64,000 nucleotides of DNA from Candidatus Syntropharchaeum sp. (GTDB taxonomy: Archaea; Halobacteriota; Syntropharchaeia; Syntropharchaeales; Syntropharchaeaceae). A program made the translations under genes and the position numbers. Position 1 is the stretch's first letter; every line of letters starts with the position of its first letter. The notes under the pieces were generated by a model. It searched no databases. It had not been told where the DNA came from and saw only the letters and a program-made list of their open reading frames with translations. The DNA is taken from positions 16,166-80,165 of the forward strand of contig JAOQII010000003.1 of the NCBI GenBank assembly GCA_026134025.1, written 5' to 3'. Of this stretch, positions 17,412 through 63,299 are shown in pieces.

Positions 17412-18773
17412 GTGTGTGGTATGAGCATGGATCTCAGAGCATTCTTAAACCCGGAGTCTGTCGCGGTTGTGGGCGCATCCCGAAATCCCAGGAGCTTTGG
17501 CTATCGCATCGTTAAAAATATGATAGATCTGGGATTTAAAGGATCAATCTATCCGATAAACCCAAAGGCAGCAAGAATCGCTGGTATCAGGGTTTACCAA
17601 TCCCTTTCCGATCTCCCAGAAATCCCTGAGCTTGTTGTTATCGCGTTACCGGGCGATCATGTGATCGATGCTCTTAAAGAATGCGAAGATGCAGGTGTCC
17701 AGAATGCGATCATAACAGCACCTGATGTTGCCGATAAACGAGAGATTACAATCTTTGCCAGAAAAGCGGGGATAAGAATACTTGGACCCAGTACAATCGG
17801 TCTTATAAACCTCAAAGATCACTTTGCAGCATCTGTTCTTCCTGTGCGAGACCTCAAGGTCAGTGGCATATCTTTCCTCGCCCAGAGTGGCGGTCTTTCA
17901 GGTGGTCTTGGCTGGTGGAGAGCTGATGGAATCGGATTTAACAAGATAATCTGTCTTGGTGATGGGTGTGATATCGACGAGATTGAAACACTAAAGGCAC
18001 TCGCTTCAGATCCCGCGACAGACGTGATCCTTGTATACCTCGATCCAAGAGAACCTGAATTCTTTAGAGAGCTTGAGAAAGTAGCCCTGAAGAAGCCTGT
18101 TGTATTCCTCGACCCCACCAAAAAAGTGGATCTTGAGGGCGTTATCGTTGTTAATAGATACTATGAGTTATTTGAGTTTGGAAAGATATTTGAGAGCGGT
18201 TTGAAGATGAATGGCAATCGAATAGGGGTTGTGAGTGTCTCTTCTGGAAGTATATCCGTTGTTCTTGAGTCGATGAAGCGAAACAACCTCGTACTTGCAA
18301 ACCTCTGCGAGGGTACTGTTAATCGGCTTCGAGAGGTTGCAAACCCATGGATAACTTCATTCAATCCGATGGATATCTGGCCACCTATCGAGTTATCTGG
18401 AGACGACGTTGGTCGCAGATACACGGAGTCTGCTGCGGCTTTGATGGATGATCCAGGGGTCGATGGGGTATTTGTAATACTTGAACTGATGGAGGAGATT
18501 GAGTTCGACCTTGAAGATATGTTTAAACCAATCGTAGAAAAACACCCGGATAAACCATTGATTCTTATATGCTGGCAGATCGAAGCTCCTGTACTTGAGA
18601 GGGTGAGACGTGAGCTTCTCGCGCTTGACATACCCTTCTACATAGATGAACTTGAACGACCCGCCGAGGTTTATGCCGCTGGATTGAAATACAGGAGGTG
18701 GAACGAAGAAATCATCTCGCAACCGCGATCTTTATCCCTGAAACCTCCAGTAGATCAACCCGTTCTCCCTTAG
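17412..18773 (+). CDS. Acyl-CoA synthetase (NDP-forming) alpha-subunit-like protein, apparently lacking the phospho-histidine loop
   Basis: CoA-binding Rossmann segment VAVVGASRNPRSFGY plus ligase-CoA domains; no HTGSM-type catalytic His motif, unlike the acdA at 50624. Confidence 0.65.
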   Translation: MCGMSMDLRAFLNPESVAVVGASRNPRSFGYRIVKNMIDLGFKGSIYPINPKAARIAGIRVYQSLSDLPEIPELVVIALPGDHVIDALKECEDAGVQNAIITAPDVADKREITIFARKAGIRILGPSTIGLINLKDHFAASVLPVRDLKVSGISFLAQSGGLSGGLGWWRADGIGFNKIICLGDGCDIDEIETLKALASDPATDVILVYLDPREPEFFRELEKVALKKPVVFLDPTKKVDLEGVIVVNRYYELFEFGKIFESGLKMNGNRIGVVSVSSGSISVVLESMKRNNLVLANLCEGTVNRLREVANPWITSFNPMDIWPPIELSGDDVGRRYTESAAALMDDPGVDGVFVILELMEEIEFDLEDMFKPIVEKHPDKPLILICWQIEAPVLERVRRELLALDIPFYIDELERPAEVYAAGLKYRRWNEEIISQPRSLSLKPPVDQPVLP

Positions 18774-21431: not shown

Positions 21432-21863
21432 CTAAGGGTTCGCACCTGCTGGAGGATTAAACTCATCTATACACGCTTTAATAAGACGTACCGCTTCTTT
21501 TATGTCCTCCTCTTTTGTATGAGTTATTTTGTTTGCTACTTCCTCTCTATCAGCCAGGCGGAATATAATCTCCCGATCTGGCTCTATCTGGAGGAATCTC
21601 CTGATAAATTCCCTTGCGCACTGGTACTGGCACCCATCGATCGTTACAACCTTCTGCTTACCAAGCTTCTTCTTGAATCCCTGGGCATTTCCATCGATGA
21701 ACGCCCTTGTAAGCTCGACGATCCCCATGGTCTCACTGATATCAGGGTAGATCTCTTCAGAGATGATACCAGATGCCATCCTTACCGCCTCTCCCGGAAT
21801 ATTAAAGCCTGAACAGGGAAAGAGGCAGATCGGTTTGACCTTCTTGCTTCTACGTTCAGCCAT
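21432..21863 (-). CDS. DGC-domain-like Cys-containing small protein
   Basis: TIDGCQYQCA contains the name-giving DGC motif; likely start at MAERR (21863) inside the longer ORF. Confidence 0.4.
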   Translation of the reverse strand: MAERRSKKVKPICLFPCSGFNIPGEAVRMASGIISEEIYPDISETMGIVELTRAFIDGNAQGFKKKLGKQKVVTIDGCQYQCAREFIRRFLQIEPDREIIFRLADREEVANKITHTKEEDIKEAVRLIKACIDEFNPPAGANP

Positions 21864-21982
21864 AGATATCCTCCTTGCTTTGCACTTCACCCCGTGATCG
21901 CAATGTATAAGACTTTTGCTAAACAGATAGTTAAATATATATTCAAGCAGGAGATAAGAGGGACTGCTATTGGAGGCAAGAG

Positions 21983-22417
21983 ATGACGACAGTCTATGAT
22001 GTACCACCAGATGCACTAATCAAAAAGCTCGTAGGGAAGCTGAAAAAGAACAAAGCCATCACCGTACCCACATGGGGAAAATATGTGAAGACAGGTGTTA
22101 ACCGTGAGATGCCGCCCGTGGATGACGACTGGTGGTTTGTCAGGTGCTCATCAATCCTGAGGCGGGTCTATATCGATGGACCTGTTGGCACAGCACGTCT
22201 TGGAACTTTCTATGGAGGGAGGCACAGACGGGGTCTAAAAACGGAACACTTCAAGAAAGGGAGCGGATCAGTCATAAGAAAAGCACTTCAGCAGCTTGAA
22301 AATGCAGGATACGTTAAAAAAATGAACAAAGGTAGGATAATAACTTCCAGAGGTAGATCCTTACTTGATAACACTGCATTTGAGGTTGAAAAAGAGCTTG
22401 AAACATCTGAATCCTGA
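21983..22417 (+). CDS. rps19e: 30S ribosomal protein S19e
   Basis: VYDVPPDALIKKLV...VPTWGKYVKTG...WWFVRCSSILRRVY signature. Confidence 0.9.
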   Translation: MTTVYDVPPDALIKKLVGKLKKNKAITVPTWGKYVKTGVNREMPPVDDDWWFVRCSSILRRVYIDGPVGTARLGTFYGGRHRRGLKTEHFKKGSGSVIRKALQQLENAGYVKKMNKGRIITSRGRSLLDNTAFEVEKELETSES

Positions 22418-22431
22418 TTGGAGGTTGTAAA

Positions 22432-22761
22432 ATGGCTGATGATGAACTGGAACTTCTCAGGCAGAAACGGATGCAGGAGCTTGCACAGCAGCAGGCTGCG
22501 GTGACACAGGAAGAAGAGGCAAAAAAAGAGTTTGAATCGAAGAAACAGGCGATATTGAGGCAAATTTTAACCCCAGAAGCACGTGAACGATTGAATAGCT
22601 TGAGGATGGCAAAACCTGAGTTTGTAGAACAGGTTGAGTTACAACTGATCGCACTTGCGCAATCAGGGAGGTTAAAATCTTCTATATCCGATGAACAGCT
22701 CAAATCAATTCTTTTGCAGCTCACACCAAAGAAGCGAGAGATTAACATAACGCGAAGATGA
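22432..22761 (+). CDS. PDCD5/TFAR19-like dsDNA-binding protein
   Basis: ELLRQKRMQELAQQQ...EARERLNSL...LSQLIALAQSGRL pattern typical of the archaeal PDCD5 homolog. Confidence 0.7.
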   Translation: MADDELELLRQKRMQELAQQQAAVTQEEEAKKEFESKKQAILRQILTPEARERLNSLRMAKPEFVEQVELQLIALAQSGRLKSSISDEQLKSILLQLTPKKREINITRR

Positions 22762-22780
22762 ATATAAATGATGATAGAAG

Positions 22781-26294: not shown

Positions 26295-27194
26295 GTGATT
26301 GAAGAGATAGTTGAGGAGATAAAACTTAAGCTTGAAAGAAACGGGATTGAGGTAGAAGCGTTCGAGATCGAGAGCCGATTGCGGTTATTGATGGATGATT
26401 ACGGCGTTTCAGCGGATGAAGCCAAGAGAAGCGTTGCAAACTACTTTATGAAGGATATTCAGGATAATAAGCGAGATAAAACATCCGAACTGGTACGTAT
26501 AAAAGATATAAAACAGGAAAATCAGTGGGTCACGATCAAAGGGAAGGTATTGACGCTGTGGGAGAGTCGACACGAGGCTATTTCACAGATAGGACTGATA
26601 GGGGATGAGGGAGGCGTAATAAAATTCACAAAGTGGAAGAGCTCTAACCTGCCAGATCTGGATATCGATAAGGTCTACACGATCGAAAATGCGGTGACCG
26701 ATGTCTGGCAGGGCAGGTACAACATAAAACTCAACCGTAACACAACGATCATTGAGATGGACGAAGATCTCGAGGTGATGTCAGAAATTGTAAGCTACAG
26801 GGGGATATTTGTCAAGATACACGATGGAAGTGGCGTTATTTATCGCTGTGTCAAATGCAACCGTAGCGTCGTCGACGGCGAATGCCAGGAGCACGGATTT
26901 GTTGAAACCAAGCCCGATCTTCGGATAAAATCTGTGATGGACGATGGACGGTCTGTACAGGATGTCCTGATCCGCCGTGAGATGACAGAGAAGCTTGTAG
27001 GTGCAGATCTTAATCAGATATTAAGCGAGGATATCGACGTGCTTCACAGGGTCGAGGATGTTTTGATTGGGAGATATTTCGTTGCAGAGGGGCGAGAGGT
27101 TGGGCGATATCTCCTGGTGGACGGGCTTGAACCGATCAAAGAGGTCCCCTATGATGAGGTTGAGCAGTTGATCTATGAGGCAGAAGGGGTTTGA
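26295..27194 (+). CDS. Replication protein A-like ssDNA-binding protein (OB-fold plus zinc ribbon)
   Basis: OB-fold pattern VTIKGKVLTLWE...IGLIGDEGGVIKFTKW, a CVKCNRS...C Zn ribbon, and a second OB-like segment. Confidence 0.5.
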   Translation: MIEEIVEEIKLKLERNGIEVEAFEIESRLRLLMDDYGVSADEAKRSVANYFMKDIQDNKRDKTSELVRIKDIKQENQWVTIKGKVLTLWESRHEAISQIGLIGDEGGVIKFTKWKSSNLPDLDIDKVYTIENAVTDVWQGRYNIKLNRNTTIIEMDEDLEVMSEIVSYRGIFVKIHDGSGVIYRCVKCNRSVVDGECQEHGFVETKPDLRIKSVMDDGRSVQDVLIRREMTEKLVGADLNQILSEDIDVLHRVEDVLIGRYFVAEGREVGRYLLVDGLEPIKEVPYDEVEQLIYEAEGV

Positions 27195-27784
27195 AAGATA
27201 TAACTGAGATCAACGGGATCAAAGCAGATATTTACGGAGAAGTAGCAGAAGATCTTCCTGCAGTCGTTCTCTGCCCGCCCCATCCGCTTTATGGTGGATC
27301 AAGACGTGATTACAGGCTCTGTGAGATTGCAGATACGCTCTCATCACGTGGGATTACCGCAATATCGATCGACTACAGCAGATATGATCGAGGTATGAGG
27401 GAGATTGAGGATGTTGTAGGCGTCATCGAATATTTAGATGGGAAAACAGGGTGGATAGGGCTTCTTGGATACTCTTATGGGGCTGTTGTCGCGTCAAACG
27501 CGGCATCCAGAACGGACGTCCCACTCAGGGGCTTTGTTGCACTCTCGATACTCGATTCAATAGACGATATAAGAGCTGATTTTAACTTTGATGCTCCAAA
27601 ATTCTTTATACACGGGAGATATGATGATGTGGCGCCTTTCTCAAATTTTGAGATACTGTACAGGAAGATTGATGGTGAAAAATCTTTGCTGATACTTGAT
27701 ACCGATCACTTCTACACTGGCATGGGCGTGGTCGAAGAAATCTCTCGCGCTGTCGCTGCGTTTTTTAAGGGTTTGTGTGAATAG
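27191..27784 (+). CDS. Alpha/beta hydrolase (dienelactone-hydrolase-like)
   Basis: Nucleophile elbow GYSYG; His near the C-terminus (DTDHFY). Confidence 0.6.
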   Translation: MKDITEINGIKADIYGEVAEDLPAVVLCPPHPLYGGSRRDYRLCEIADTLSSRGITAISIDYSRYDRGMREIEDVVGVIEYLDGKTGWIGLLGYSYGAVVASNAASRTDVPLRGFVALSILDSIDDIRADFNFDAPKFFIHGRYDDVAPFSNFEILYRKIDGEKSLLILDTDHFYTGMGVVEEISRAVAAFFKGLCE

Positions 27785-31428: not shown

Positions 31429-31798
31429 GCTTGATCGGGTCATTATACCACTTGCAGCCTCGATAGGACTCGCAGTTATTATCGTCATGATAGCATTCGG
31501 AATAAATGAGATCGCCGTAGATGGATTGCCCATTCCACGACACTACCTTCTTCTGATACTGGCACTCACATTTGTCACAGGCTCCGTGATACTGAACCAG
31601 GAGGACGATCTCAAAACGATCACAAGAGGGGGGATTTTCGCAATCCTCGCATCTTTCGTCGTTGTGACACTGATCGGAGGGGTTGTAAGCTTTTTTGAAG
31701 AGGTGCCCACATTCAGCCTGTTTCTCTCCTCCCTATCGATCTGCATAATCGTATCAGCGATAATGCTAAAGGTTTTTTTTGGTCTTACTTCCGCCTGA
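31415..31798 (+). CDS. Small integral membrane protein (3-4 TM)
   Basis: Hydrophobic helices; overlaps the xseB end. Confidence 0.45.
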   Translation: MMKNKLDRVIIPLAASIGLAVIIVMIAFGINEIAVDGLPIPRHYLLLILALTFVTGSVILNQEDDLKTITRGGIFAILASFVVVTLIGGVVSFFEEVPTFSLFLSSLSICIIVSAIMLKVFFGLTSA

Positions 31799-32258
31799 GG
31801 TTAACGATATCTCCGAGTGTCAGTGTTCCCCCACTTTTTATTCTGCCAGGATTCGCCTCTTCGATACCTTCAGTTAGTTTGATCGAAAGCACAGACTCGA
31901 GCTTCTTTACGAGCGCATCATCGGGCGTTATATCTTCCCGCTCAACCTTCTTTATGAGTGATTCTTTCTCGTTGATACGTTTTGCCAGATCCTCGGATGA
32001 CCACTGTCGTTTCTGTCTCGCCTCCCTGATCTTTGCGCCATAGTTAGAAATAAGCTCATCCACGATATTATCGAAGATACTGCGTTTGGGCCTCCTTCTC
32101 TCCCTTAAACCAGGCGGGGAGACCCTTCCTTTATCCATGTTATCCTCAATCTCTTTCCCGTATCGCAGGCACGTGCCACATACGATAAGCTCAGACCCCT
32201 CTATCAGGATACGGTTGGGCTTTCCGATGATCTCGGATCCACACATCTCACATTGCAT
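31785..32258 (-). CDS. mbf1: Archaeal multiprotein bridging factor 1 (Zn-ribbon plus Cro/C1 HTH)
   Basis: N-terminal CEMCGS...CGTC zinc ribbon; C-terminal HTH (RQKRQWSSEDLAKRINEKESLIKKVE). Confidence 0.8.
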   Translation of the reverse strand: MQCEMCGSEIIGKPNRILIEGSELIVCGTCLRYGKEIEDNMDKGRVSPPGLRERRRPKRSIFDNIVDELISNYGAKIREARQKRQWSSEDLAKRINEKESLIKKVEREDITPDDALVKKLESVLSIKLTEGIEEANPGRIKSGGTLTLGDIVNLRRK

Positions 32259-32351: not shown

Positions 32352-33182
32352 TTGATGTTAGGGGGGGATGATGCGTACTTTGAGGATTTGAAGACAAAGG
32401 TTAAGAGGGACGTCACATTCGATTGTAGCCAGTACAAAGATTCATTTCTTAAACGACGATTCGCGATACGGATGCGAGCAACGCGGGTAACGACCTTCAG
32501 AGACTACATAAAACTCCTCGATTCTGATCAGCAGGAATATGAGAAATTGCTGGATACGCTCACCGTCAACGTCACGGAGTTTATGAGAGATCCCCCGGTC
32601 TATGAGGCATTTACTGCTGTTCTAAGAGATCTGGTAGCTGCAAAGGTTAAGAGAGGAGATAAAACGCTGAGGATCTGGAGTGCAGGGTGTTCAAGCGGCG
32701 AAGAAGCATACTCGCTCGCCATTCTTCTTAGAAAGACACTGGGGGTCATGCACCGTGATCTAAGCACCCAGATCATCGCGTCAGATATTGATCCTGGCTC
32801 GTTGAATAAGGCGCGAGAGGGGGTGTATAAGAAAGATGCGCTTAAGAACATGATGGATAAGGAGATTCAGATTTACTTTACCAGGGAAAAAGATCTTTAC
32901 CGAGTAAACGACGATTTAAAGCGGATGATTCGATTCAAAAAGCACGATCTGATCCGCGAAAAAGAGATCGGTTATTGTGATGTGATCTTCTGTAGAAACG
33001 TCATAATTTACTTCTCAAGGGAACAGCAGAAGGATCTCTACATGAAGTTCTACAGAGGACTCAAGGATTATGGGTACCTTGTAACAGGTAAGAGCGAGAC
33101 ACTCGTTGGTAAAGCAGCGAATCTATTTAAAACGATCAACCATAGGGAGAAGATCTATCAGAAGATACCAAGAGCGACTTGA
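32352..33182 (+). CDS. cheR: Chemotaxis protein methyltransferase CheR
   Basis: FMRDPPVYEAF and SAM-binding IWSAGCSSGEEAYSLAILL motifs; the start is possibly upstream at a non-ATG codon. Confidence 0.8.
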   Translation: MMLGGDDAYFEDLKTKVKRDVTFDCSQYKDSFLKRRFAIRMRATRVTTFRDYIKLLDSDQQEYEKLLDTLTVNVTEFMRDPPVYEAFTAVLRDLVAAKVKRGDKTLRIWSAGCSSGEEAYSLAILLRKTLGVMHRDLSTQIIASDIDPGSLNKAREGVYKKDALKNMMDKEIQIYFTREKDLYRVNDDLKRMIRFKKHDLIREKEIGYCDVIFCRNVIIYFSREQQKDLYMKFYRGLKDYGYLVTGKSETLVGKAANLFKTINHREKIYQKIPRAT

Positions 33183-36892: not shown

Positions 36893-37483
36893 TTATTTGC
36901 CCATCAGTATCCGTCTCGAATCGATGACAAGCGAGATTATAAGAAATATAAGTATGAAACCCCTCAGATACTGCCTGAGATCGGGATCAAGCTCGAGCAG
37001 CGTATGTGGCAGGACCCCGATCTTCGGGATCATTAGGGGATGTCCAAAAAATTCCGGTACAACTCCGTAGATATCCTCACATTTTACGATATCCATCCCG
37101 AGTTCCTGATCAGGTCTTTCGATATTATCTCCTTTTGTAATATACCCATCATTTTCTCCTAAAACATCAAATACTCGATGCATCACCATGTATTCTGTTT
37201 TATCGCTCTTAAAAACGATGATTTCACCAACATCTGGCTCACCCATAAGATCGGGTAAATACGGAATAACCACCACGATGTCTTTTTCGGTTATCAATGG
37301 CTCCATAGAGGTTCCGTGTATTGCATCAAGCCCCCATGGGACGCCAAATGCATGTGAAGCCACCGAAAGGATTGCGAAGATCGTGACGATCCACGAAATC
37401 ACGTATATTGTTCTCACCTTCTCACCACCTCTATACCACCAGATCGTACTATCTATGCACAACATTTTAAGTTTGATCCACAC
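36893..37483 (-). CDS. Signal peptidase I (archaeal Sec11/S26 type)
   Basis: N-terminal TM anchor; catalytic Ser box GTSMEP; His box VMHRV. Confidence 0.7.
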   Translation of the reverse strand: MWIKLKMLCIDSTIWWYRGGEKVRTIYVISWIVTIFAILSVASHAFGVPWGLDAIHGTSMEPLITEKDIVVVIPYLPDLMGEPDVGEIIVFKSDKTEYMVMHRVFDVLGENDGYITKGDNIERPDQELGMDIVKCEDIYGVVPEFFGHPLMIPKIGVLPHTLLELDPDLRQYLRGFILIFLIISLVIDSRRILMGK

Positions 37484-39218: not shown

Positions 39219-39752
39219 ATGGATATGGATAGAAGAAGACCGTTGATCATGATCGCAGTACTGACATTGATAACAGCTGGAGCACTCATAATTGAATTCT
39301 CAAATGATGAGGTGGAAGATGTTTCAGCCACCCCTGGAGCAACACCAGCATCATCTTCTCAGGAAGTGAGTGGCAGGATTGTCTCGATCGAGTTCGATAA
39401 GCCAAGTTACAACGCTGGAGATAAAGTAAAGGTCAGCCTCAATTTTGAGAATACCGGGGAAGCGGATCTCACCAGTGAAGAGGTTGTGATCAGGGCATAC
39501 TGTGAGAATCTTGATAGTATGCTTGGAAAAATGGCTTTGAAGACCCTGAGCGACGAAGAGCGATCGAAGACAATCAGACTGAAATATACCGTTAACGTAA
39601 AGCCAGGTGAAACTGGAACGCTCAGCGCGAGTTTTCAGACAGATGCAGAGATGGAAGGTGTGAGTCTTGCAGGCGATTACGAGGTTACAGTGACATTGAA
39701 GGGCAACGGTGTAACCTTAGCCGAGAAAAAGCTTAATCTCAGGCTCAATTAA
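39219..39752 (+). CDS. Exported/membrane-anchored hypothetical protein with a beta-sandwich-like domain
   Basis: N-terminal TM/signal anchor IMIAVLTLITAGALII followed by a Ser/Thr linker and a beta-rich domain. Confidence 0.45.
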   Translation: MDMDRRRPLIMIAVLTLITAGALIIEFSNDEVEDVSATPGATPASSSQEVSGRIVSIEFDKPSYNAGDKVKVSLNFENTGEADLTSEEVVIRAYCENLDSMLGKMALKTLSDEERSKTIRLKYTVNVKPGETGTLSASFQTDAEMEGVSLAGDYEVTVTLKGNGVTLAEKKLNLRLN

Positions 39753-46097: not shown

Positions 46098-46111
46098 TCT
46101 CAAAATGTTAA

Positions 46112-46185
46112 TGGGGCCGCTGAGATTCGAACTCAAGTCCGAGGACCCCCAGTCCCCGAGGATGACCAGGCTACCCTACGGCCCC
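46112..46185 (-). tRNA. tRNA-Pro (anticodon GGG), no intron
   Basis: Reverse complement folds as acceptor GGGGCCG/CGGCCCC plus A73, anticodon stem GGGGA/TCCTC with loop CTGGGGG, T arm TTGAG-TTCGAAT-CTCAG; 74 nt. Confidence 0.8.
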
Positions 46186-46260
46186 AAAGGCAGCTATCCC
46201 TGTATAACTCAATCGGGACATCCTTATAATACTTTGGTTATATGATAGACGCCTGATACC

Positions 46261-49937: not shown

Positions 49938-50627
49938 ATGAGATCGAGAGAGGTGGATGCGTTACTTGGAGAGGCAGCATCAGGTAACCGTAGTGTTTTA
50001 ACAGAGTACGAGTCAAAGAAGATCTTTGCTGCGGCAGGAATACCTGTTACAAAAGAGATTCTCACAGATTCGATCGAGGATGCGATTGCAGCAGGGAATA
50101 AGATCGGGTATCCGGTTGTTTTGAAGATCTCATCCCCTGAAGTGAGCCATAAATCAGATTTTGGGGGCGTATATCTCGGTATCAGCGATGAAGAGGCGCT
50201 TAGAGTGGCGTGTGAAGATCTTAAAAAGCGAGCAGAAGATGCGTCGATCGAGTTCTCATTCCTCCTGCAGGAGATGGTAGATGCAGGTCAGGAACTTCTT
50301 GTAGGAGCAAAGAGGGACGCAACCTTTGGTCCTGCAATCCTGTTCGGTCTTGGAGGGATATTCACAGAGATCCTCGACGATGTAGCAATCCGAATTTCCC
50401 CGATCGAGCGTGAAGAAGCCCGGAGAATGGTACGTGAGATTAAAGGTGCGCCGGTACTGGATGGATATCGCGGGATGCCACCTGTCGATCTTGAGGCGGT
50501 TGTTGACGTCATACTCAGGGTCTCAGAACTCATGGAGACGTATGAAGAGATATCTGAACTTGATATAAACCCGCTCTTTGGATATGAGAAGAGCGTACTT
50601 GCAGTTGACGGGCTTGTTCTACTATGA
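49938..50627 (+). CDS. acdB: Acetyl-CoA synthetase (ADP-forming) beta subunit (ATP-grasp)
   Basis: ATP-grasp segment LTEYESKKIFAAAGIPV...GYPVVLKI...KSDFGGV. Confidence 0.8.
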   Translation: MRSREVDALLGEAASGNRSVLTEYESKKIFAAAGIPVTKEILTDSIEDAIAAGNKIGYPVVLKISSPEVSHKSDFGGVYLGISDEEALRVACEDLKKRAEDASIEFSFLLQEMVDAGQELLVGAKRDATFGPAILFGLGGIFTEILDDVAIRISPIEREEARRMVREIKGAPVLDGYRGMPPVDLEAVVDVILRVSELMETYEEISELDINPLFGYEKSVLAVDGLVLL

Positions 50628-52006
50628 ATCGCTTTTTTGAACCACAGAGCATCGCTGTTATCGGTGCATCGAAGAATAGATCAAAAGGTGGATACAGAAT
50701 CCTTGAGAACTTAATAGAATGGGGCTACACCGGTAGGATTTATCCGGTAAACCCACAGGCAGATGAGATACTCGGGTTGAAGGTTTTCCCCTCGGTCAGC
50801 TCACTACCTGAGATCCCGGATCTTGCGGTTCTCGTTGTACCCCGTGAGATGGTGCTTGATGTGGTTGAAGAGGCAGGCAAGTTCGGGATCGATCGTATGA
50901 TAATCGTTGCAAACCGATTCTCAGATGGTGACGCTGAAGGGCAAAAGCTGGAGGAGAGTCTCGTTGAGCTCACAGAAAGTATGGGTATCAGGGTGCTTGG
51001 TCCAAACTCGATCGGTGTTGTGAATACAAAGATTGGGCTTGTAACCTCGATCCTACCGCTTGAAGCGTATAAGAAAGGAGGTGTATCTTTTATCGGACAA
51101 ACCGGAATGTTTCTTGGTGGGTTTGCAAGGTGGATCACCTCATCACAGTACTTCGGGATCGACAAGGTCGCCATCCTCGGAAATAAGTGCGATCTCGATG
51201 AGGCAGATATGATCGAGTACTTTGGGTCAGAGAAATCCTGTAATGTGATAGCTCTTTACCTCGAGGGCGTGAAGGATGGTAGAAAGTTCCTGAAAAAAGC
51301 AGCAAATGTTGCAGGCAAAAAACCACTTCTGATCCTCAAAAGCGGAAGAACCAGGATAGGTGCACGTGCAACTGCATCCCATACAGGCTCGATGAGCGGG
51401 GAGGATAGGGTATTTGATGCTGCAATGAAGCAGGTTCATGCGATCCGTGTCTATGACTTCGATGAACTCTTCGATCTTGCAAAAGCCCTCTCATACTTCG
51501 CAGATTGGCCGTCTGTAAAGGGTGAGCGTGTTGGGGTTGTATCGGTATCCGGGGCGGGATGTGTGCTCTCGGCCGATGCTATTTCAGATTGTGGGCTTAT
51601 GCTCTCAGATCTATCAGAAGATACGATCAAGCGAGTAATCTCGACATATCCGCCTGGATGGATGGTACAGAACCCGATCGATATGTGGTCCGCGATCGAA
51701 GAGGTTGGGGCTGATGAAGCGTATCTAAAGATCACCCAGGCCGTTATGGAAGATCCCGAGGTTGACGGTGTCTCTATCATCTTTATGGTCATCCCAACCG
51801 TGACCGAGATGGATATCAGACGATTTGTCCAGGCAATCAAGGTCTACGAAAAACCGTTTGCAATCTGCTTCATGGGCGGAGATATGCGGGTAGTTGATGA
51901 TTGGGAACGAATTATTGAAGAAGAAAAAGTGCCGGTATATCATTCGCCTGAACGTGCGATAAGGGCTATTGGCACGGTTCTGAGGTGGAAAAACGGCAAG
52001 GTGTGA
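50624..52006 (+). CDS. acdA: Acetyl-CoA synthetase (ADP-forming) alpha subunit
   Basis: CoA-binding IAVIGASKNRSKGGY plus a phospho-histidine loop ATASHTGSMSG; ATGA overlap with acdB. Confidence 0.85.
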   Translation: MNRFFEPQSIAVIGASKNRSKGGYRILENLIEWGYTGRIYPVNPQADEILGLKVFPSVSSLPEIPDLAVLVVPREMVLDVVEEAGKFGIDRMIIVANRFSDGDAEGQKLEESLVELTESMGIRVLGPNSIGVVNTKIGLVTSILPLEAYKKGGVSFIGQTGMFLGGFARWITSSQYFGIDKVAILGNKCDLDEADMIEYFGSEKSCNVIALYLEGVKDGRKFLKKAANVAGKKPLLILKSGRTRIGARATASHTGSMSGEDRVFDAAMKQVHAIRVYDFDELFDLAKALSYFADWPSVKGERVGVVSVSGAGCVLSADAISDCGLMLSDLSEDTIKRVISTYPPGWMVQNPIDMWSAIEEVGADEAYLKITQAVMEDPEVDGVSIIFMVIPTVTEMDIRRFVQAIKVYEKPFAICFMGGDMRVVDDWERIIEEEKVPVYHSPERAIRAIGTVLRWKNGKV

Positions 52007-52011
52007 TTTGA

Positions 52012-52626
52012 ATGGGAATACTGAAGAGACTTTCAAAGGATGAAGAGACCAGGAGGATTAATAAGCGGCTCGATCTTGAGGATGAGATCATATTTCGGCT
52101 GTCGAAGTACGAGGATCAAGATCCTGAGGTACTCTACGCTTGCCTGCGCAAGTACATGGCTGTCCGGTATCCATATCTCGATGACAGGGGGTATATCGGA
52201 GTTGCAGATGATACCCACCCGGGTCTTTACTATACTGGTGACATACTCATTCATACAACGAGATTTGAGTTAAAACCCGGGAGTATCGTCCACTTCCGCC
52301 AGTATGGCCCGGATGAGATGTACGTTCTTCACGGAAAGATTAACTCGATCGATGATCATGGGTATGCAAAGGTTGAGGGTCCAACAGGCGGGGAGGGGCT
52401 CATCAATCTTGAGGCGGTAATGGGCGTTCTTATCGAGGTTATACCATTCAGAGAAGGCGCCTGGGAGCGATTATTTGTGGGTCTTATGGGGACAGACTAT
52501 GAGATACTCGAGACGATGATATCGGACGCGATCGCGGGGTACAGATCAGAGGAGATTGTACCAGAAAAGCAGAAGAATGATATCCTCTCAGAGCTTGAGA
52601 GGCGGCTCGATGCGTTGAGGGGATAG
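52012..52626 (+). CDS. Hypothetical protein of 204 aa, co-directional directly after acdA
   Basis: Starts 6 nt after the acdA stop; coding-like composition; no recognisable motif. Confidence 0.4.
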   Translation: MGILKRLSKDEETRRINKRLDLEDEIIFRLSKYEDQDPEVLYACLRKYMAVRYPYLDDRGYIGVADDTHPGLYYTGDILIHTTRFELKPGSIVHFRQYGPDEMYVLHGKINSIDDHGYAKVEGPTGGEGLINLEAVMGVLIEVIPFREGAWERLFVGLMGTDYEILETMISDAIAGYRSEEIVPEKQKNDILSELERRLDALRG

Positions 52627-53003
52627 GATTATAAAAGTTCAACTTCTGCATTACCACTGATGCCCGAAAACGCTCGCATCGTCCTGGAGATATATCATGA
52701 AGACGGGGAGAAGCTCCCTGAAGAAATACTCAGCGAATCGGAGATCAAGGCTATGGCGAGTGTGTATGTCCACTTGAGCGGTCGTGATATCGATAACGCC
52801 CTTCTTGCGTTCCATCATCAGGTATCCACTCAAACGGCTTAACACTTGCAAGAAAGGTCGTGAAGGATGCAGGATATTCATACACCGATCCATTCCCGAA
52901 AGATCCATCAAAGACGATTGGAGGGGAGTTTTTAATCCTTACAAGGATCAGGGCTTATGAAGCGGCACCCTCCCATTTTTTTCTGTAATTTATCTCTACC
53001 CTG

Positions 53004-53219
53004 TCACCCACTCCTCATTGATGTCCATCCTCTCTCGTCATCCGCAAGCGATTGATTGATATGAGCTTTGTTCACATATCGCACACCCTCACGCACCTTG
53101 AAGTATGCTGCATCGATGAAGAGATAGTGAATTTCGCATTCGATCGGTCTCTTGAGAAACTGTTTCACACTATCGTCAAGTTTCTTCGCAATTAATTGAG
53201 GTTTCTCATACCCTCTTCG
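53004..53219 (-). pseudogene. IS256 (Mutator) family transposase fragment of about 70 codons, with no start and truncated at both ends
   Basis: Minus-strand frame reads RRGYEKPQLIAKKLDDSVKQFLKRPIECEIHYLFIDAAYFKVREGVRYVNKAHINQSLADDERGWTSMRSG. This matches the conserved IS256 block (...W..RPL...YP.LF.DA.HFKVRE.GRVV...). It is bounded by stops and has no ATG. Confidence 0.55.
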
Positions 53220-53432
53220 TCATCGATAAGAAAATCTTCTATGAATTCTTTTACAGAAAATTCGTTACGCTACCTTGAAAGGACGAAGTTTCCTGAGGGT
53301 GTTCTGAAGTTTGATGGCTGGAGTGGGTGCGAGGTGGTCTTTAAGAATGAAGGGGTTACAATCTATGAGCTTCTGGATGAAAACGCTTAATATATATACT
53401 GCTGCTTTAATTTAATATCTGGAGGATCGTCC

Positions 53433-58047: not shown

Positions 58048-59238
58048 CTAAAACCACCTGTGAAAGGCATCATGCATAACCGCCTCAATATCAATCCCTG
58101 TAACACCGATTACAATATACGCGCCCAGGAATGTTCCGATAATGCTCCCGATATTTGCAAGGGCTGCGACAAGAAGAATCTTGAAGACCGGGTTTTTCAG
58201 GAGTTCAGAAATGGTCTCAACATCGACCAGACCCTTCAAATCCGATGTAGCAGGCGATCTAACCCATGCTTCAACGAGACCTGCAAACCATCCTGCTGCG
58301 ATCATCGGGTTCAGGGATGTGAGCCATGCAACAGCAAACGCCGTGAGAACCGAGAGTGGATGCCCCCGTGCGATTATAACACCACACGCTGAGAGAATGC
58401 CGTTTATGATGATCCAGTAAAAAAGTGCAAGAAGAAGACGATCCATCGAAACCCCTGAGGTAAGTATGACAAAGAGCGTCACCATCAAGAAGAGAAAGAT
58501 CATGATCCCGAAAACCTTCCCAAGATTGAATCGCTTCTTCGGGACTGATCTGAGATCTCCTTTCCGGGTGATCAGGGATGGGTCCTTGAGGTGTCTATCA
58601 ATCCCCTCAAGATGCCCCGCTCCGACAACAGCAACGATCCTGCCCTTAAGGTGCAGTAGCTGATTGGCGATGTATGCATCCCGTTCATCGATTAAGACCT
58701 CTGCAGCAGATGGTGAAAACCTCCTCAGTTCTTCGATTAGCTGTGATACTATATCGGCGTCTGTGATATTATCGATCTCGATCTCCTCTTCACCAAAGCC
58801 GATGAGAGATGCGATTATCGCAAATAACATCCTGAACTTCTCCCTGAGTTTCATCTTGCCCCAGAACCGCTGCATCGTAATCGCGATGTCTCGATCAATG
58901 AGTGCGATCCTTATCCCCTGCTCTTCTGCCGCTTCGATTGCTGCAAGCATCTCCGCTCCTGGTTCGACCCCCATCTCGCGCCCAATCTTTCGTTGAACGT
59001 ATGCCATGAGATACTGCATTAAGAGGAGGTAGACGTTTCCGCTTTTTATCACATCTTTTATCGGTACCTCTTCAACCTCTCCTTTTAAAGCCATATATCG
59101 TCTCTGGCAGAGTTCGACAGCCACAATATCTGGTTTTATCTGATCAATCGCCTCACGAACCTCTCTCACACTCTTTTCAGATACGTGAGCTGTTCCGATG
59201 AGTGTTACTTCCTTTTCTGATTCGTTCATTCCTTTCAT
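58048..59238 (-). CDS. TraB/PrgY/Tiki-superfamily protein with C-terminal TM domain
   Basis: GTxH motif LIGTAHVSEKS at the N-terminus and a second GxxH motif VVGAGHLEGI; 4 predicted C-terminal TM helices. Confidence 0.7.
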   Translation of the reverse strand: MKGMNESEKEVTLIGTAHVSEKSVREVREAIDQIKPDIVAVELCQRRYMALKGEVEEVPIKDVIKSGNVYLLLMQYLMAYVQRKIGREMGVEPGAEMLAAIEAAEEQGIRIALIDRDIAITMQRFWGKMKLREKFRMLFAIIASLIGFGEEEIEIDNITDADIVSQLIEELRRFSPSAAEVLIDERDAYIANQLLHLKGRIVAVVGAGHLEGIDRHLKDPSLITRKGDLRSVPKKRFNLGKVFGIMIFLFLMVTLFVILTSGVSMDRLLLALFYWIIINGILSACGVIIARGHPLSVLTAFAVAWLTSLNPMIAAGWFAGLVEAWVRSPATSDLKGLVDVETISELLKNPVFKILLVAALANIGSIIGTFLGAYIVIGVTGIDIEAVMHDAFHRWF

Positions 59239-59239
59239 C

Positions 59240-60340
59240 TCACATTCTTAAGATCTCTATCGAACGTATAAGATCTGTCTTTGAGAGGATGCCGACAAGT
59301 ACCCCGTCTCTTACCACAAGAATTCGTCCGACATTGTGTTGACTGATGAGCCTCAGAACCTCGGCAGCAGATTCATCTTCTGTAACCGCAATAGGATCCG
59401 TTGACATTATATCACGAACCAAAACCTCATCAAGCTTATCCTTTGGCACATTCTTGACATCCGTGAGGCTCACAATTCCAATAGGGGATCCATCGGCATC
59501 AAGAACCGGATAACCTTTGTGCCGGTCGGTCAGCATAAAATCAAGAAGTTCCCGCACAGTGATATCCGGGTTGACGGTCACAACATCTCTTGATATGAGA
59601 TCTCTTATCTCTACCCCTTCAAGGAAGGTTTGAATGTTTGTTGCAGTCTCCTCCTCCGATGCTGCAATGTAAATGAAGAACGCGATCAGGATCAGCATCC
59701 ACCCGCCGTAGATCAACCCGAAGACTCCCATTAAGATCGCAAAGATCTTTCCAATCTGGACAGCCATCCTTGTGGCAGCTATATAAGATGATTCCCGCTT
59801 TGCGAGATATGCCCGCAGTATCCTTCCCCCATCCATCGGAAAGGCAGGCAGGAGGTTGAAGACCGCGAGAATTATATTGATATATCCCATCGCAAATGCA
59901 AGAATGCCGAAACCTTCCCACCAGATGTTTCCGGGGATTGTACTGAAGGGTACATGGAGTATGAGAAACGTCGAACCGATAAGGATACTTGCAAGTGGTC
60001 CTGCGACAGCGATCCTTGACTCAACCTTTGGATCCCTTGGTATCTCTTTCATCGATGCGATCCCACCGAAGATGAAGAGCGTGATCGACTCGATCGCAAC
60101 GCCATGGCGCATCGCAATATAAGAGTGTGAGAGTTCATGTGCGATAACACATGCAAACAGGATGATTGTTGTGAGCGTTGCAAGTATAAATCTCGCGTAA
60201 AACGGCTCAATCTCAGCGAAACCAAAAGGAGCTGGTTGATTCATAAATATCAGGATGAATGGTGGCAGGATCAGAAGAAATGTGATGTGAAGTTTTATCG
60301 GTATCCCAAGTGCCTTACCGATCTCGATCGATGTTCGCAT
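59240..60340 (-). CDS. Site-2 protease (M50 family) with tandem CBS domains
   Basis: HELSH zinc motif within a TM helix, LDG motif FPMDGGRI, two C-terminal CBS domains; 1-nt gap to traB. Confidence 0.8.
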   Translation of the reverse strand: MRTSIEIGKALGIPIKLHITFLLILPPFILIFMNQPAPFGFAEIEPFYARFILATLTTIILFACVIAHELSHSYIAMRHGVAIESITLFIFGGIASMKEIPRDPKVESRIAVAGPLASILIGSTFLILHVPFSTIPGNIWWEGFGILAFAMGYINIILAVFNLLPAFPMDGGRILRAYLAKRESSYIAATRMAVQIGKIFAILMGVFGLIYGGWMLILIAFFIYIAASEEETATNIQTFLEGVEIRDLISRDVVTVNPDITVRELLDFMLTDRHKGYPVLDADGSPIGIVSLTDVKNVPKDKLDEVLVRDIMSTDPIAVTEDESAAEVLRLISQHNVGRILVVRDGVLVGILSKTDLIRSIEILRM

Positions 60341-60395
60341 GCACCTTATATAATAGATCTATCTATTTAGCTTTAGCGACCATGAGAGGTAAAAA

Positions 60396-61388
60396 ATGGA
60401 TGAACGTATAATCTCTCCTGCAAAGAAAGATGATGAGACCTGTGAGTTTGATCTCAGGCCACGCAGCCTCTCAAACTTCATTGGACAGGAGAAGGTGAAG
60501 GAACAGCTAAAGATCTTCATCGAGGCTGCAAAGGGGCGAAAAAGCGTACTTGATCATATCCTCTTCCACGGGCCACCTGGACTTGGAAAGACGACACTTG
60601 CCAGGATCATAGCTGAGGAGATGGGGGTTAATATCCTCTCAACGAGCGGTCCTATCCTTGAGAAAGCTGGTGATCTCGCCGCGATCATAACAAACCTATC
60701 CGAAGGGGATATTCTCTTCATCGATGAGATTCACAGGCTCAATACAGCGGTCGAGGAGATCCTCTATCCTGCGATGGAGGAGTTCAAACTTGATATCATA
60801 ATCGGAAAAGGACCTGGTGCTCGCTCGATAAAGCTCAACACACCCCATTTTACACTTATAGGTGCAACCACAAAGACCGGGCTTCTCTCTTCACCCTTAA
60901 GGGATAGATTTGGGGTAATATCAAGGATGGAATTTTACACGCCCCACGAGCTTCAGAGGATTGTGGAGAACGCATCAGATATGCTTGGAATCAGGATTGA
61001 ATCCGATGGCGCAGGAGAGATCGCGAAGCGCTCGAGGGGTACGCCAAGAATTGCTTTGAGGCTCTTGAGACGGGTTCGTGACTTCGCAGAGGTCAGGGGG
61101 GATGGCACCATCGATCAAAGAATTGCTGATATGGCACTCAAGATGCTCGGGGTTGATGCGGTGGGGTTTGATGAGATGGATCGGCTCATCATATCGACGA
61201 TCATCGATAAGTTTAACGGGGGTCCTGTCGGACTTGATACGATCGCATCAGCGATAGGGGAGGATTCAAACACGATTGAGGATGTCTATGAGCCCTATCT
61301 ACTCCAGCAGGGTTTCATAAACAGAACGCCACGTGGTAGAGTTGCAACCCCGATCGCGAAGGGGTGGTGGAAGGCGCATCCTGAGTGA
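60396..61388 (+). CDS. ruvB: Holliday junction branch-migration ATPase RuvB (bacterial type)
   Basis: Near-collinear match to bacterial RuvB: [66 protein letters not shown]-terminal winged helix. Confidence 0.85.
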
Positions 61389-61402
61389 GTTATAGGTATA
61401 TG

Positions 61403-62575
61403 CTAAAAACTTTTCATAAGCGAGAATAACAATCCTGCAACCTTCGCCTTTGGAAGTGAAATGAGTTCTCTGAAAAGGATTGAGGGCTTATCCATATCAC
61501 CGAAATTCTCTATCACCCTGATAATCTCGGGGTCATTGAGCGATTCGATGAGTTGATCGAGCTTACGATCATCAAGACCTGAAAACCACCTGTGGATCTT
61601 AAACCCGATTGAGAGTTCCTTTCCAATGAGTCTTCTCCACTTTTTTTCGTACTCAAGAAGGCGCATCCTGGTTGTATCACCATCCAGGACCGCTTCTGCT
61701 GCCACCCTGCCAGCGATCCTGGCGCAGACCGCACCGGTATATATCCCACCTCCTGTCGTTGGCTTAACCTGCCCTGCTGCATCTCCAACCGCTATAAAAC
61801 CATCTGAAACCGTCTTCTTAGCCATACCGATCGGTATTCCGCCGAGCACAAAATCTGTGGTTGATCCTCTAACCAAAGGATGATCGCTTATGAGCCTCTC
61901 AAGGTAACTGAGCGCAGACGCTTTAATCCCATCGCTTGCGATACCGAGACCAACACGCCCAAAACCATCTTCTGTAGGTATCATCCATCCAAAAAACCCT
62001 GGCGCAACCTTTTTACCAAGAAAAACCTCCACAAAGTCGGAATCCTCAAAATCACATCTGACCTCTGTCTGAATGGCTGGTATGATCCTGGGAAGGTTGG
62101 TGTCACCAAGATAGAGCCTTGAAATCCTTCTTTTAACTCCCTCTGCCGCAATGAGAACTCCTGCCTCGATAATCTCTCGCTCACCATTTACACGAACCTC
62201 CAGTCGCCCTTGCCCTCCTTCAACCACCTTTGCCTTGAGCAGGATCTCACATCCCGCATCAAGAGCACGTGATGCAAGTTCTCGATCAAAGATCTTCCTA
62301 TCGATGATCCATGCCTTCTCTTCATGTCCATCGATCCGCAGACGGTGGTTTGGCGAGTTTATGAACGCGCCCTGTGCAGTCCTGATCAGAAAGTCACCCC
62401 GTTTGACCTCACATGCGGATGCCGCCCGTCTGCTTATGATCCCTGCACACTGTATCGGCTCACCGATTGCGGGGTGCTCCTCGATAATAATCGTCTTTGC
62501 ACCGCTTGCTGCTGCATACTTGCCAGCGATACTACCAGCAGGTCCCCCACCTATAATCGCGACATCAACCTTCAT
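61403..62575 (-). CDS. Geranylgeranyl reductase family FAD-dependent oxidoreductase (archaeal lipid saturase-like)
   Basis: VAIIGGGPAGS FAD fold; GEPIQCAGIIS motif; about 390 aa. Confidence 0.8.
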   Translation of the reverse strand: MKVDVAIIGGGPAGSIAGKYAAASGAKTIIIEEHPAIGEPIQCAGIISRRAASACEVKRGDFLIRTAQGAFINSPNHRLRIDGHEEKAWIIDRKIFDRELASRALDAGCEILLKAKVVEGGQGRLEVRVNGEREIIEAGVLIAAEGVKRRISRLYLGDTNLPRIIPAIQTEVRCDFEDSDFVEVFLGKKVAPGFFGWMIPTEDGFGRVGLGIASDGIKASALSYLERLISDHPLVRGSTTDFVLGGIPIGMAKKTVSDGFIAVGDAAGQVKPTTGGGIYTGAVCARIAGRVAAEAVLDGDTTRMRLLEYEKKWRRLIGKELSIGFKIHRWFSGLDDRKLDQLIESLNDPEIIRVIENFGDMDKPSILFRELISLPKAKVAGLLFSLMKSF

Positions 62576-63299
62576 CCCAGCTGGATATCGGTTTTGTTAC
62601 TATAGAAAAGGTTCCATCCCTGTAGACGAGTGGAAAGTACCGTCTCCCGATGTTTGTGCACCGCATCTTGACGATACCGATCTTTAGAGCAAGTGTGTGG
62701 GTCGTACTATCGCGGTCGAGGTCGAGGTGGATGATACCGTCCGCGAGAAAATCTTCCACACCGCAGTTGCTGAACTGTGAATGGGATGCCATCTCTGATA
62801 TGAGAAGTGTTGTGAGCCCCATCTCTCTCAACGATTTGAAGAACATAAATATCTCCCGTCTCGGCGTCTCAACCTTTGTGAGTGAATATAGTCCATTGAG
62901 TGAGTCTATTACAAGCAGTGAATTCTCCTCGTCACTCTTGCACAGATTCTCCAGGTAATTCAGGATTCGTCTGATCCAGTTCTGTTCAAGGCGGTGATCA
63001 AGCCGTGATCGCTCAAGCTCACTATCTATATCATTGTATGAGATCATCGTGATCTTCTCATGGGCTGACATCTGGAGCGATTCCATCTGTTCCATCATAC
63101 TCTCTGGTGTCTGCTCGAGCGTGATGTATATCCCTTTCCCCCCATCTTCATCATTGATCGCGTTCTTATAGAGGATACTATATGCAAGCGAGCTCTTCAT
63201 GGAACCTGGTCTTCCGCAGATGAGTGTGGCAAATCCACTTGGAATACCGCCTTCAAGATATTCATCCATCCCTGCAATGTATGTCCTGACACGATCCAT
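62565..63299 (-). CDS. KaiC/RadA-like RecA-superfamily ATPase (single domain)
   Basis: Walker A GRPGSMKSS; KaiC-like domain of 244 aa; overlaps the downstream GGR gene by 11 nt. Confidence 0.6.
   Translation of the reverse strand: MDRVRTYIAGMDEYLEGGIPSGFATLICGRPGSMKSSLAYSILYKNAINDEDGGKGIYITLEQTPESMMEQMESLQMSAHEKITMISYNDIDSELERSRLDHRLEQNWIRRILNYLENLCKSDEENSLLVIDSLNGLYSLTKVETPRREIFMFFKSLREMGLTTLLISEMASHSQFSNCGVEDFLADGIIHLDLDRDSTTHTLALKIGIVKMRCTNIGRRYFPLVYRDGTFSIVTKPISSWDEG

Follow-up and report, generated by a model that had tools for sequence, protein, structure and literature searches.

Results

The ruvB locus

The DNA analyzed here (the window) is a 64-kb stretch of contig JAOQII010000003.1 from Candidatus (Ca.) Syntrophoarchaeum, a butane-oxidizing archaeon of the lineage Archaea; Halobacteriota; Ca. 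Syntropharchaeia; Syntropharchaeales. The ORF (open reading frame) listing of the window contains a reading frame of 330 amino acids, with an ATG start, that encodes RuvB. RuvB is an AAA+ hexameric ring that encircles double-stranded DNA and, by ATP-driven pumping, brings about branch migration of Holliday junctions and reversed forks. It is commonly regarded as strictly bacterial and as dependent on RuvA for junction finding and for its ATPase cycle. An earlier note, made from the DNA sequence without database searches, had read the ORF as an orphan bacterial-type RuvB in an archaeal genome, and we confirmed that it encodes a genuine full-length bacterial-type RuvB. The features of the locus are listed in Table 1.

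Table 1. Features of the ruvB locus and its flanks in the window
Feature	Position	Strand	Remarks
TraB-family protein	58048-59238	-	M50-CBS partner conserved across Syntropharchaeia and Methanoperedens
M50 metalloprotease with two CBS domains (M50-CBS)	59240-60340	-	Divergent neighbor of ruvB; start at 60340
Divergent intergenic region, M50-CBS/ruvB	60341-60395		55 nt; scattered substitutions, otherwise conserved in two other species with the same arrangement
TATA-box-like element TTATATAA	60346-60353	+	Some 46 nt ahead of the ATG; same sequence in L087 and S. caldarius
Shine-Dalgarno-like GAGAGGT	60384-60390	+	5 nt before the ATG
ruvB coding sequence	60396-61388	+	Residues 20-180 (approximate), large ATPase domain including the presensor-1 beta-hairpin; 181-254, lid; 255-321, winged-helix head
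Spacer, ruvB stop to convergent GGR stop	61389-61402		14 nt
Geranylgeranyl reductase (GGR) family gene	61403-62575	-	Convergent, downstream of ruvB; specific to the window species
KaiC-domain ATPase	62565-63299	-	Upstream of the GGR gene, 11-nt overlap; unlinked to ruvB in other species

The gene has its own upstream gap toward the divergent M50-CBS gene, as the earlier note had stated; the distance from its stop codon to the convergent GGR gene, given there as 15 nt, is one nucleotide shorter. The element TTATATAA in this gap is a putative archaeal TATA-like promoter box. The stretch from this box to the ruvB start shows conservation in both other species with the arrangement, and GAGGT, GTGGT or GTGGG variants are found at a similar position before the ruvB ATG in all four species. 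The upstream elements would fit an archaeal TATA promoter with a short Shine-Dalgarno leader, and such archaeal-style elements suggest that ruvB is expressed as its own unit and not as the tail of a ruvAB operon. The adjacency of ruvB and M50-CBS is held in the window species, the P0002 species and Syntrophoarchaeum caldarius, and the downstream context differs in sister species.

A complete bacterial-type RuvB

The claim that the protein is near-collinear with bacterial RuvB was borne out. Its three-domain RuvB architecture is complete, with every domain matched end to end in Pfam: RuvB_N (PF05496) at residues 20 to 178 (profile 1 to 159 of 159; E = 4.8e-79), the RuvB AAA lid (PF17864) at residues 181 to 254 (profile 1 to 74 of 74; E = 2.3e-31), and the C-terminal winged helix (PF05491) at residues 256 to 321 (profile 2 to 67 of 72; E = 1.2e-24). 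The protein far exceeds both NCBIfam equivalog thresholds, with 510.9 bits for the RuvB model NF000868, where the cutoff is 282, and 468.4 bits for TIGR00635, where it is 299. Residues 9 to 321 aligned with solved bacterial RuvB structures (Pseudomonas aeruginosa, Escherichia coli-type, Thermus thermophilus, Streptococcus thermophilus, Campylobacter jejuni-type and Thermotoga maritima entries) with E values from 1e-110 to 1e-131. Public databases already label the protein RuvB, and this annotation is correct. Among the papers searched, none treats this protein and none pairs Syntrophoarchaeum with RuvB or the Holliday junction.

The motifs required for catalysis are also in place. Walker A (GPPGLGKTT), Walker B (DEIH), sensor 1 (ATT), the sensor 2 residue R218, the arginine finger R171, the cis Arg21 and the trans Glu128 all equal the bacterial consensus and are fixed in six archaeal RuvB sequences; the roles of these residues are those assigned by Wald et al. 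2022 (PMC9477746). For P. aeruginosa RuvB, mutations that abolish branch migration affect E40, R52, D233 and R238 at the contacts between subunits, R175 of the arginine finger, and the DNA-contacting R314, R317 and R319 (PMC10071043). All of these essential residues are kept in the window protein: E36, R48, D229 and R234, the inter-subunit salt-bridge residues; R171; and R310, R313 and R315, the DNA-contact arginines of the C-terminal beta-hairpin. Aligned with 144 bacterial RuvBs, the archaeal clade keeps 161 of the 180 columns with a bacterial conservation of 90% or more; of the 71 columns that reach 97% or more in a taxonomically spread bacterial subset, it keeps every one. Judged by its sequence, the archaeal protein has all that is needed for ring formation, ATP hydrolysis and DNA grip.

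A role in a defense system was considered and rejected. PADLOC returned only generic P-loop matches for the protein (IetA and DolB; at most 26 bits over about 30 to 60 residues), and four of the five genes neighboring ruvB had no match.

Archaeal context of the gene

The window is an unremarkable part of an archaeal chromosome and carries the archaeal markers TFB, archaeal-type S-adenosylmethionine synthetase, aRF1, fibrillarin, PAN, GatE and GGR, together with genes for the tetraether lipid synthase Tes, archaeal LonB, CDC48, NrpR, RNase HII and aconitase X. With the family scores above their cutoffs and the neighbors archaeal, the reading of a bacterial-type RuvB in an archaeal genome stands.

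GenBank entries named 'Candidatus Syntropharchaeales archaeon' and 'Candidatus Syntrophoarchaeum sp.' are identical to the window RuvB, and the neighboring M50-CBS protein is identical to a 'Candidatus Syntrophoarchaeum sp.' protein. The identical RuvB was found in four independent assemblies, namely two NCBI metagenome-assembled genomes (MAGs), the Logan assembly of SRR21418560, and a JGI contig. Where the contigs reach, the flanks are the same in all four, with the divergent M50-CBS gene upstream and the convergent GGR-KaiC genes downstream. A chimeric contig, which the earlier note had raised as a possibility, and contamination were rejected on the identical junctions in these independent assemblies and on the archaeal contexts of the gene in sister species.

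Orthologs and limits of the clade

A cluster look-up gave about 14 member sequences in five 90% clusters, and all named members are Syntropharchaeales. Among the matches listed, these five archaeal clusters are at 83 to 100% identity; the next matches are bacterial and drop to about 70%. An ortholog with 93% identity (L087) and that of S. caldarius (L081; 86% by BLAST, 85% in the alignment) both adjoin TraB and M50-CBS; the S. caldarius contig is 492 kb long and has SufBD-SufC-NifU another 6 kb upstream. The Syntrophoarchaeum butanivorans ortholog (L001; 83%) lies between SufBD-SufC and the archaeal/eukaryotic marker ABCE1/RLI, and SufBD-SufC-NifU is directly upstream of ruvB in a metagenomic relative of S. 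butanivorans (L089). These recurrent landmarks, Suf/NifU and TraB/M50-CBS, are consistent with one insertion in an ancestor and later local rearrangement. A check of sister genomes, which the earlier note had proposed, thus found ruvB in S. caldarius, S. butanivorans and other MAGs, with vertical inheritance within the lineage. No conserved operon partner of ruvB was found across the species. The only recurrent neighbors are the divergent M50-CBS gene (three species) or SufBD-SufC(-NifU) (the S. butanivorans lineage), neither of which is DNA-processing.

At the corresponding site of relatives outside the clade, other genes are found. Syntrophoarchaeum sp. WYZ-LMO15, whose M50-CBS protein is 71% identical, has a phosphatase gene 33 nt upstream of M50-CBS and no ruvB; a Syntropharchaeia MAG has a thiolase gene at this site, and Methanoperedens and another archaeal MAG have LonB there, again with no ruvB. 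A RuvB-like sequence was found at none of the M50-CBS/TraB loci of these four relatives, and no RuvB of 70 to 83% identity, the range expected for a WYZ-LMO15 ortholog, was among the best 120 protein matches. A one-genome-per-species scan with RuvB gave one archaeal locus among the best 80, and a metagenome scan for archaeal RuvB orthologs gave two archaeal-type copies only, both from one JGI sample. The absence from the syntenic sites of relatives and the few scan matches suggest that ruvB is confined to a narrow, rare lineage.

Three side observations concern these flanks. The M50-CBS and TraB pair (58048-60340 in the window, minus strand; L168, L170 and L171) is conserved from Syntrophoarchaeum to Methanoperedens at 50 to 72% identity, and in L170 and L171 an archaeal LonB gene occupies, divergently upstream of M50-CBS, the position that ruvB has in the window. 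Pairs of HEPN and nucleotidyltransferase genes (MNT-type toxin-antitoxin) are found in two archaeal MAGs (L170 1-1042 and L171 1753-2557), at equivalent positions close to PmbA/TldD-LonB. Two genes upstream of ruvB, S. butanivorans encodes a full-length bacterial-type UvrC (L001 6369-8123, minus strand), with GIY-YIG, UVR, both UvrC RNase H and helix-hairpin-helix domains; it is a second bacterial-type repair gene in the lineage.

Origin and selection

In a neighbor-joining analysis of 77 sequences, the six archaeal RuvBs were monophyletic in 200 of 200 bootstraps, so that the phylogeny called for in the earlier note places a fully supported archaeal clade among bacterial RuvBs. Its sister group, nominally Firmicutes, had a bootstrap value below 25%. 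The identity of archaeal to bacterial RuvBs was 0.54 to 0.70 (median 0.65), and the bacteria-to-bacteria median in the same sample was 0.64. Since the identity to bacteria is in the bacteria-to-bacteria range and there is no long stem branch, the clade behaves as one more bacterial RuvB lineage. The closest bacterial match among those listed (P0006, 70%) is encoded in a yebC-ruvC-ruvA-ruvB operon on a contig that also carries LpxC. Donor assignment from the best matches (P0006, of a Gram-negative lineage, and Desulfuromonadales/Geobacter) was dropped because no sister group is supported. Horizontal acquisition, as proposed in the earlier note, is upheld by a clade that is monophyletic, within the bacterial range of divergence and limited to one narrow lineage. 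This indicates a single horizontal transfer from a bacterial donor, followed by vertical inheritance and use.

A recent transfer visible by composition was rejected. The GC content (0.498), GC content at third codon positions (0.535) and codon usage of ruvB are within the range of 14 other window genes, and the compositional check that the earlier note had suggested therefore set ruvB apart neither from its neighbors nor as a recent arrival. Because the composition equals that of the neighbors, the transfer appears old enough for full amelioration.

We then calculated pairwise Nei-Gojobori ratios of nonsynonymous to synonymous substitution (dN/dS) among four species. The dN/dS of ruvB was 0.06 to 0.11 at a dS of 0.7 to 1.4, that of M50-CBS was 0.08 to 0.10, and that of TraB was 0.07 to 0.12. 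For the same species pairs the dS of ruvB was similar to that of these neighbors, as expected for co-inherited genes. Strong purifying selection thus maintains ruvB. Archaeal RuvB showed no overall acceleration in rate relative to bacterial RuvBs, such as a radical shift in function would lead one to expect, and overall functional divergence was rejected, since the deviation from the bacterial consensus does not exceed that of Lachnospiraceae, Thermotogae and Patescibacteria sequences.

Search for RuvA and RuvC

We searched for partners of RuvB by tblastn, with RuvA and RuvC of the nearest bacterial relative as queries, and with hidden Markov models (HMMs). The RuvA HMM was built from 70 bacterial RuvAs plus the query and the RuvC HMM from 45 bacterial RuvCs, all encoded next to a bacterial ruvB. 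The DNA searched, about 130 kb, was that of the window, L001, L081 and L083-L087, in which L083-L086 largely repeat the window; it covers 21-kb stretches around ruvB in two species. No RuvA or RuvC was found in the window, nor in the roughly 120 kb of non-redundant archaeal DNA from four species, which is short of whole genomes; the earlier note's statement that neither is encoded nearby therefore holds. The only weak match in the RuvA search was the helix-hairpin-helix motif of UvrC. In the archaeal DNA searched, neither the adjacent ruvA nor the RuvC of a complete RuvABC resolvasome was seen, and ruvB is monocistronic in three different archaeal contexts.

The same comparison was made for bacteria, where ruvA was found within 10 kb of ruvB in 70 of 79 loci. 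Three of the remaining nine loci are cut off upstream, and six have ample flanks and no ruvA even by HMM. Since these six also lack a nearby ruvA, a ruvB without an adjacent ruvA is not proof of RuvA absence. The six loci (L002, L036, L039, L055, L067 and L070) come from Eubacterium and Eubacteriales, Acetothermia, Patescibacteria and Thermodesulfobacteriota, and separation of ruvA from ruvB may be more frequent among bacteria than commonly assumed.

RuvA-docking surface and clade-specific substitutions

The docking surface for RuvA domain III, which the presensor-1 beta-hairpin and alpha3 make up, is present in archaeal RuvB, and the hairpin has its full length. The hairpin residues L132, I134, I136, I145, L147, F152 and L154 and the alpha3 motif GDLAA are kept, and the hydrophobic docking residues of both elements are fixed in all six archaeal sequences. 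Of the highly conserved columns, 23 of 26 are kept on the docking surface, compared with 72 of 81 in the rest of the ATPase domain. A relaxed RuvA-binding surface, which would be a sign of RuvA loss, was not seen, as the surface is conserved like the rest of the domain. Such conservation is what continued RuvA use predicts; the same residues also hold the hairpin together.

Other positions of the surface have changed. The hairpin has five clade-specific changes at polar positions (Q131K, Q138K, S141G, D148N and L149T), and no bacterial sequence among 144 has more than two of the five. Archaeal hairpins have a net charge of +1 to +3, versus a mode of 0 in bacteria. A pocket for Leu20, formed by Thr193, Ile196, Phe197 and Asn221, positions Arg21 on the ADP alpha-phosphate (Wald et al., PMC9477746). 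This pocket belongs to a nucleotide-exchange relay that is modulated by RuvA binding, and three of its four residues are changed in the archaeal clade (S193A, I196 to K, R, M or T, and N221L). Other changes of the clade are R192N and, in the C-terminal tail, Y322K/R and H324W. The hairpin and pocket changes are suggestive only, because they were noticed post hoc, because a bacterium (L011) that has the N221L change retains both ruvA and ruvC, and because the overall deviation of the clade is unexceptional.

Other features of the window

Several further features of the window lie apart from ruvB. A CheR-type chemotaxis methyltransferase (32352-33182, plus strand; CheR_N and CheR, E = 6e-56) has MobB, PAN and an unannotated ORF as neighbors, with no other chemotaxis genes among them, and may be an orphan CheR. 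ADP-forming acetyl-CoA synthetase-like enzymes are encoded at two loci (17412-18773 and 49938-52006, both on the plus strand), one with a single alpha-like gene and one with an ATP-grasp and alpha pair; both may bear on how an alkane oxidizer handles acyl-CoA.

The whole-window Rfam gathering scan and the tandem-repeat search gave no matches. ARAGORN found a tRNA-Pro(GGG) at 46111-46186 (minus strand), which a local Rfam scan scored at 45.8 bits against a gathering score of 29; that the whole-window scan missed it is a speed-filter artifact and not a sign of an odd tRNA. Eight ORFs of 157 to 299 amino acids had no Pfam match at E <= 1e-8, with spans at 2939-3511 (-), 21432-22016 (-), 26295-27784 (+), 31785-32258 (-), 36893-37483 (-), 39219-39752 (+) and 52012-52626 (+). 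Several stretches of 600 to 800 nt, for example 22017-22780 and 52627-53432, have no ORF of at least 150 amino acids.

Discussion

It is probable, in our judgment, that the archaeal protein is a genuine and active RuvB that came by one old transfer to the ancestor of Ca. Syntrophoarchaeum and has been inherited vertically since. The transfer would have been into the common ancestor of the marine Ca. Syntrophoarchaeum group, which would comprise S. butanivorans, S. caldarius, the window species and two or more additional metagenomic variants. After the transfer, ruvB would have become a stand-alone gene with archaeal-style expression signals, passed on by vertical descent under strong purifying selection. 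The archaeal RuvB ring is predicted to encircle duplex DNA and to pump it by means of its winged-helix arginines at branched intermediates of recombination or repair. Since no RuvC was seen, the junctions would presumably be cleaved by a host archaeal resolvase in its place. Targeting to the junction might be provided by an unlinked RuvA, or by a host junction-binding protein on the conserved hydrophobic surface of the beta-hairpin and alpha3, a surface that has gained extra positive charge in the archaeal clade.

Several points weigh against this account. The activity of archaeal RuvB is predicted from its sequence, and we name no donor, since the sister-group bootstrap is below 25%. That WYZ-LMO15 is without ruvB is deduced from one 11-kb contig and from the lack of a match in the expected identity range, not from a whole-genome search. 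The conserved docking surface and the lack of rate acceleration fit a RuvA encoded elsewhere equally well. In the bacterial systems studied, it is RuvA that places RuvB on junctions and stimulates its ATPase (PMC9477746), and junction targeting would therefore be unexplained if RuvA were absent.

Of the alternatives, the one that fares best is an ordinary transplanted machine, in which ruvA and perhaps ruvC are encoded elsewhere in Syntrophoarchaeum genomes; we regard it as a serious possibility, a little short of an even chance. A RuvA still in use would account for docking residues that are kept and fixed in all six archaeal sequences and for a protein that evolves no faster than bacterial RuvBs. 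The likely type of donor carried ruvC, ruvA and ruvB together, the six bacterial loci with enough flank and no ruvA within 10 kb show a similar separation, and the L011 bacterium combines the N221L change with ruvA and ruvC. This alternative is, however, set against the empty search of about 120 kb of archaeal DNA from four species, the monocistronic state of ruvB in three different contexts, and five clade-fixed hairpin changes whose combination occurs in none of the 144 bacterial sequences.

Whether the Syntrophoarchaeum lineage has no RuvA at all is, in our estimate, evenly balanced. A repurposed RuvB is a tentative and rather doubtful reading; it would act either as a general RuvA-free translocase or helicase on double-stranded DNA or together with an archaeal protein new to it (such as Hjc, Hef or PCNA-associated factors), the latter giving a junction-processing system of mixed bacterial and archaeal parts. 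This reading would agree with the lack of ruvA and ruvC nearby, with the added positive charge of the hairpin, with the three altered residues of the Leu20 pocket, and with the precedent of the RuvA-independent helicase RuvB-FH of Mycoplasma pneumoniae (PMC3364216). On the other hand, the substitution pattern was recognized only after the fact, the protein deviates from the bacterial consensus no more than divergent bacterial phyla do, and no partner gene is conserved beside ruvB across the species. The more specific proposal of a RuvA-less lineage, in which RuvB with a re-charged hairpin and a rebuilt Leu20/Arg21 latch is run by Hjc or another host factor, seems unlikely to us.

A decaying or functionless leftover of a transferred ruvCAB operon is very improbable. 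Partial operon decay would leave a ruvB with no local ruvA or ruvC, as is found here, but the low dN/dS at a dS of 0.7 to 1.4, the lack of any frameshift or stop codon in four species, and the fixation of all catalytic residues argue against it. We give practically no credence to an assembly or binning artifact that misjoined a bacterial fragment to an archaeal contig: although the sources are MAGs, in which chimeras occur, the same gene and both junctions recur in four independent assemblies, orthologs are flanked by archaeal genes on 492-kb and 106-kb contigs of two other species, and ruvB matches its neighbors in composition and codon usage and co-varies with them in dS. Just as little credence is given to ancient vertical inheritance from the last universal common ancestor with loss in nearly all other archaea, because ruvB is limited to one genus-level clade, the syntenic site is without ruvB in close and distant relatives, and the identity to bacteria (up to 70%) equals that between bacterial phyla, with no long stem branch.

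Bacterial repair genes are common in archaea. That strong selection has retained a RuvB in an archaeon makes for a clean natural experiment on the portability of one subunit of a multi-protein machine. If the genomes prove to have no RuvA, the protein would show which features of RuvB suffice for RuvA-independent function and would point to an archaeal adaptor; in a RuvA-less hybrid machine, a RuvB motor would for the first time be seen in nature to work apart from RuvA and within archaeal recombination. If RuvA is encoded elsewhere, ruvB would be one more bacterial repair gene, alongside the S. butanivorans UvrC, that moved into archaea living in tight syntrophy with bacteria.

Compared with known systems, the archaeal protein has the same architecture, length and motifs as bacterial RuvB of E. 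coli, P. aeruginosa, T. thermophilus, T. maritima and S. thermophilus (PDB 7x7q, 9dx3, 1hqc, 1in4 and 7pbl), at 54 to 70% identity in the sample. It differs from these in its archaeal host, monocistronic gene and archaeal-type upstream elements, and in having no adjacent ruvA or ruvC. A likeness to TIP49 (RUVBL1-2) is weak and confined to the AAA+ P-loop region (PF06068, 25.5 bits, residues 26 to 80, profile 24 to 78 of 347; RuvB-like 1 in PDB, E = 3e-14 over residues 18 to 80). A TIP49 homolog was rejected, since only about 60 residues match, there is no domain II insertion, and the RuvB lid and winged helix are present.

The archaeal Hjc resolvase and Hjm/Hel308 helicase (PMC10956419, PMC2636818) would be the expected co-workers of archaeal RuvB, or else a redundant pathway. 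They belong to folds and families unrelated to RuvB (a nuclease and an SF2 helicase), and the window encodes neither. As a precedent, a RuvB family member independent of RuvA is reported from Mycoplasma, the genomes of which still encode RuvA. The M. pneumoniae protein RuvB-FH is active as a helicase without RuvA stimulation and shows no branch migration in vitro (PMC3364216).

Bacterial-type UvrABC in archaea offers a precedent for bacterial repair genes that became fixed in archaeal genomes. Archaea have usually gained UvrABC as a full working set, and it is found widely across several archaeal orders. Unlike UvrABC, RuvABC is represented here by one subunit in one narrow clade, and for archaea to retain a single RuvABC subunit under strong selection is unusual.

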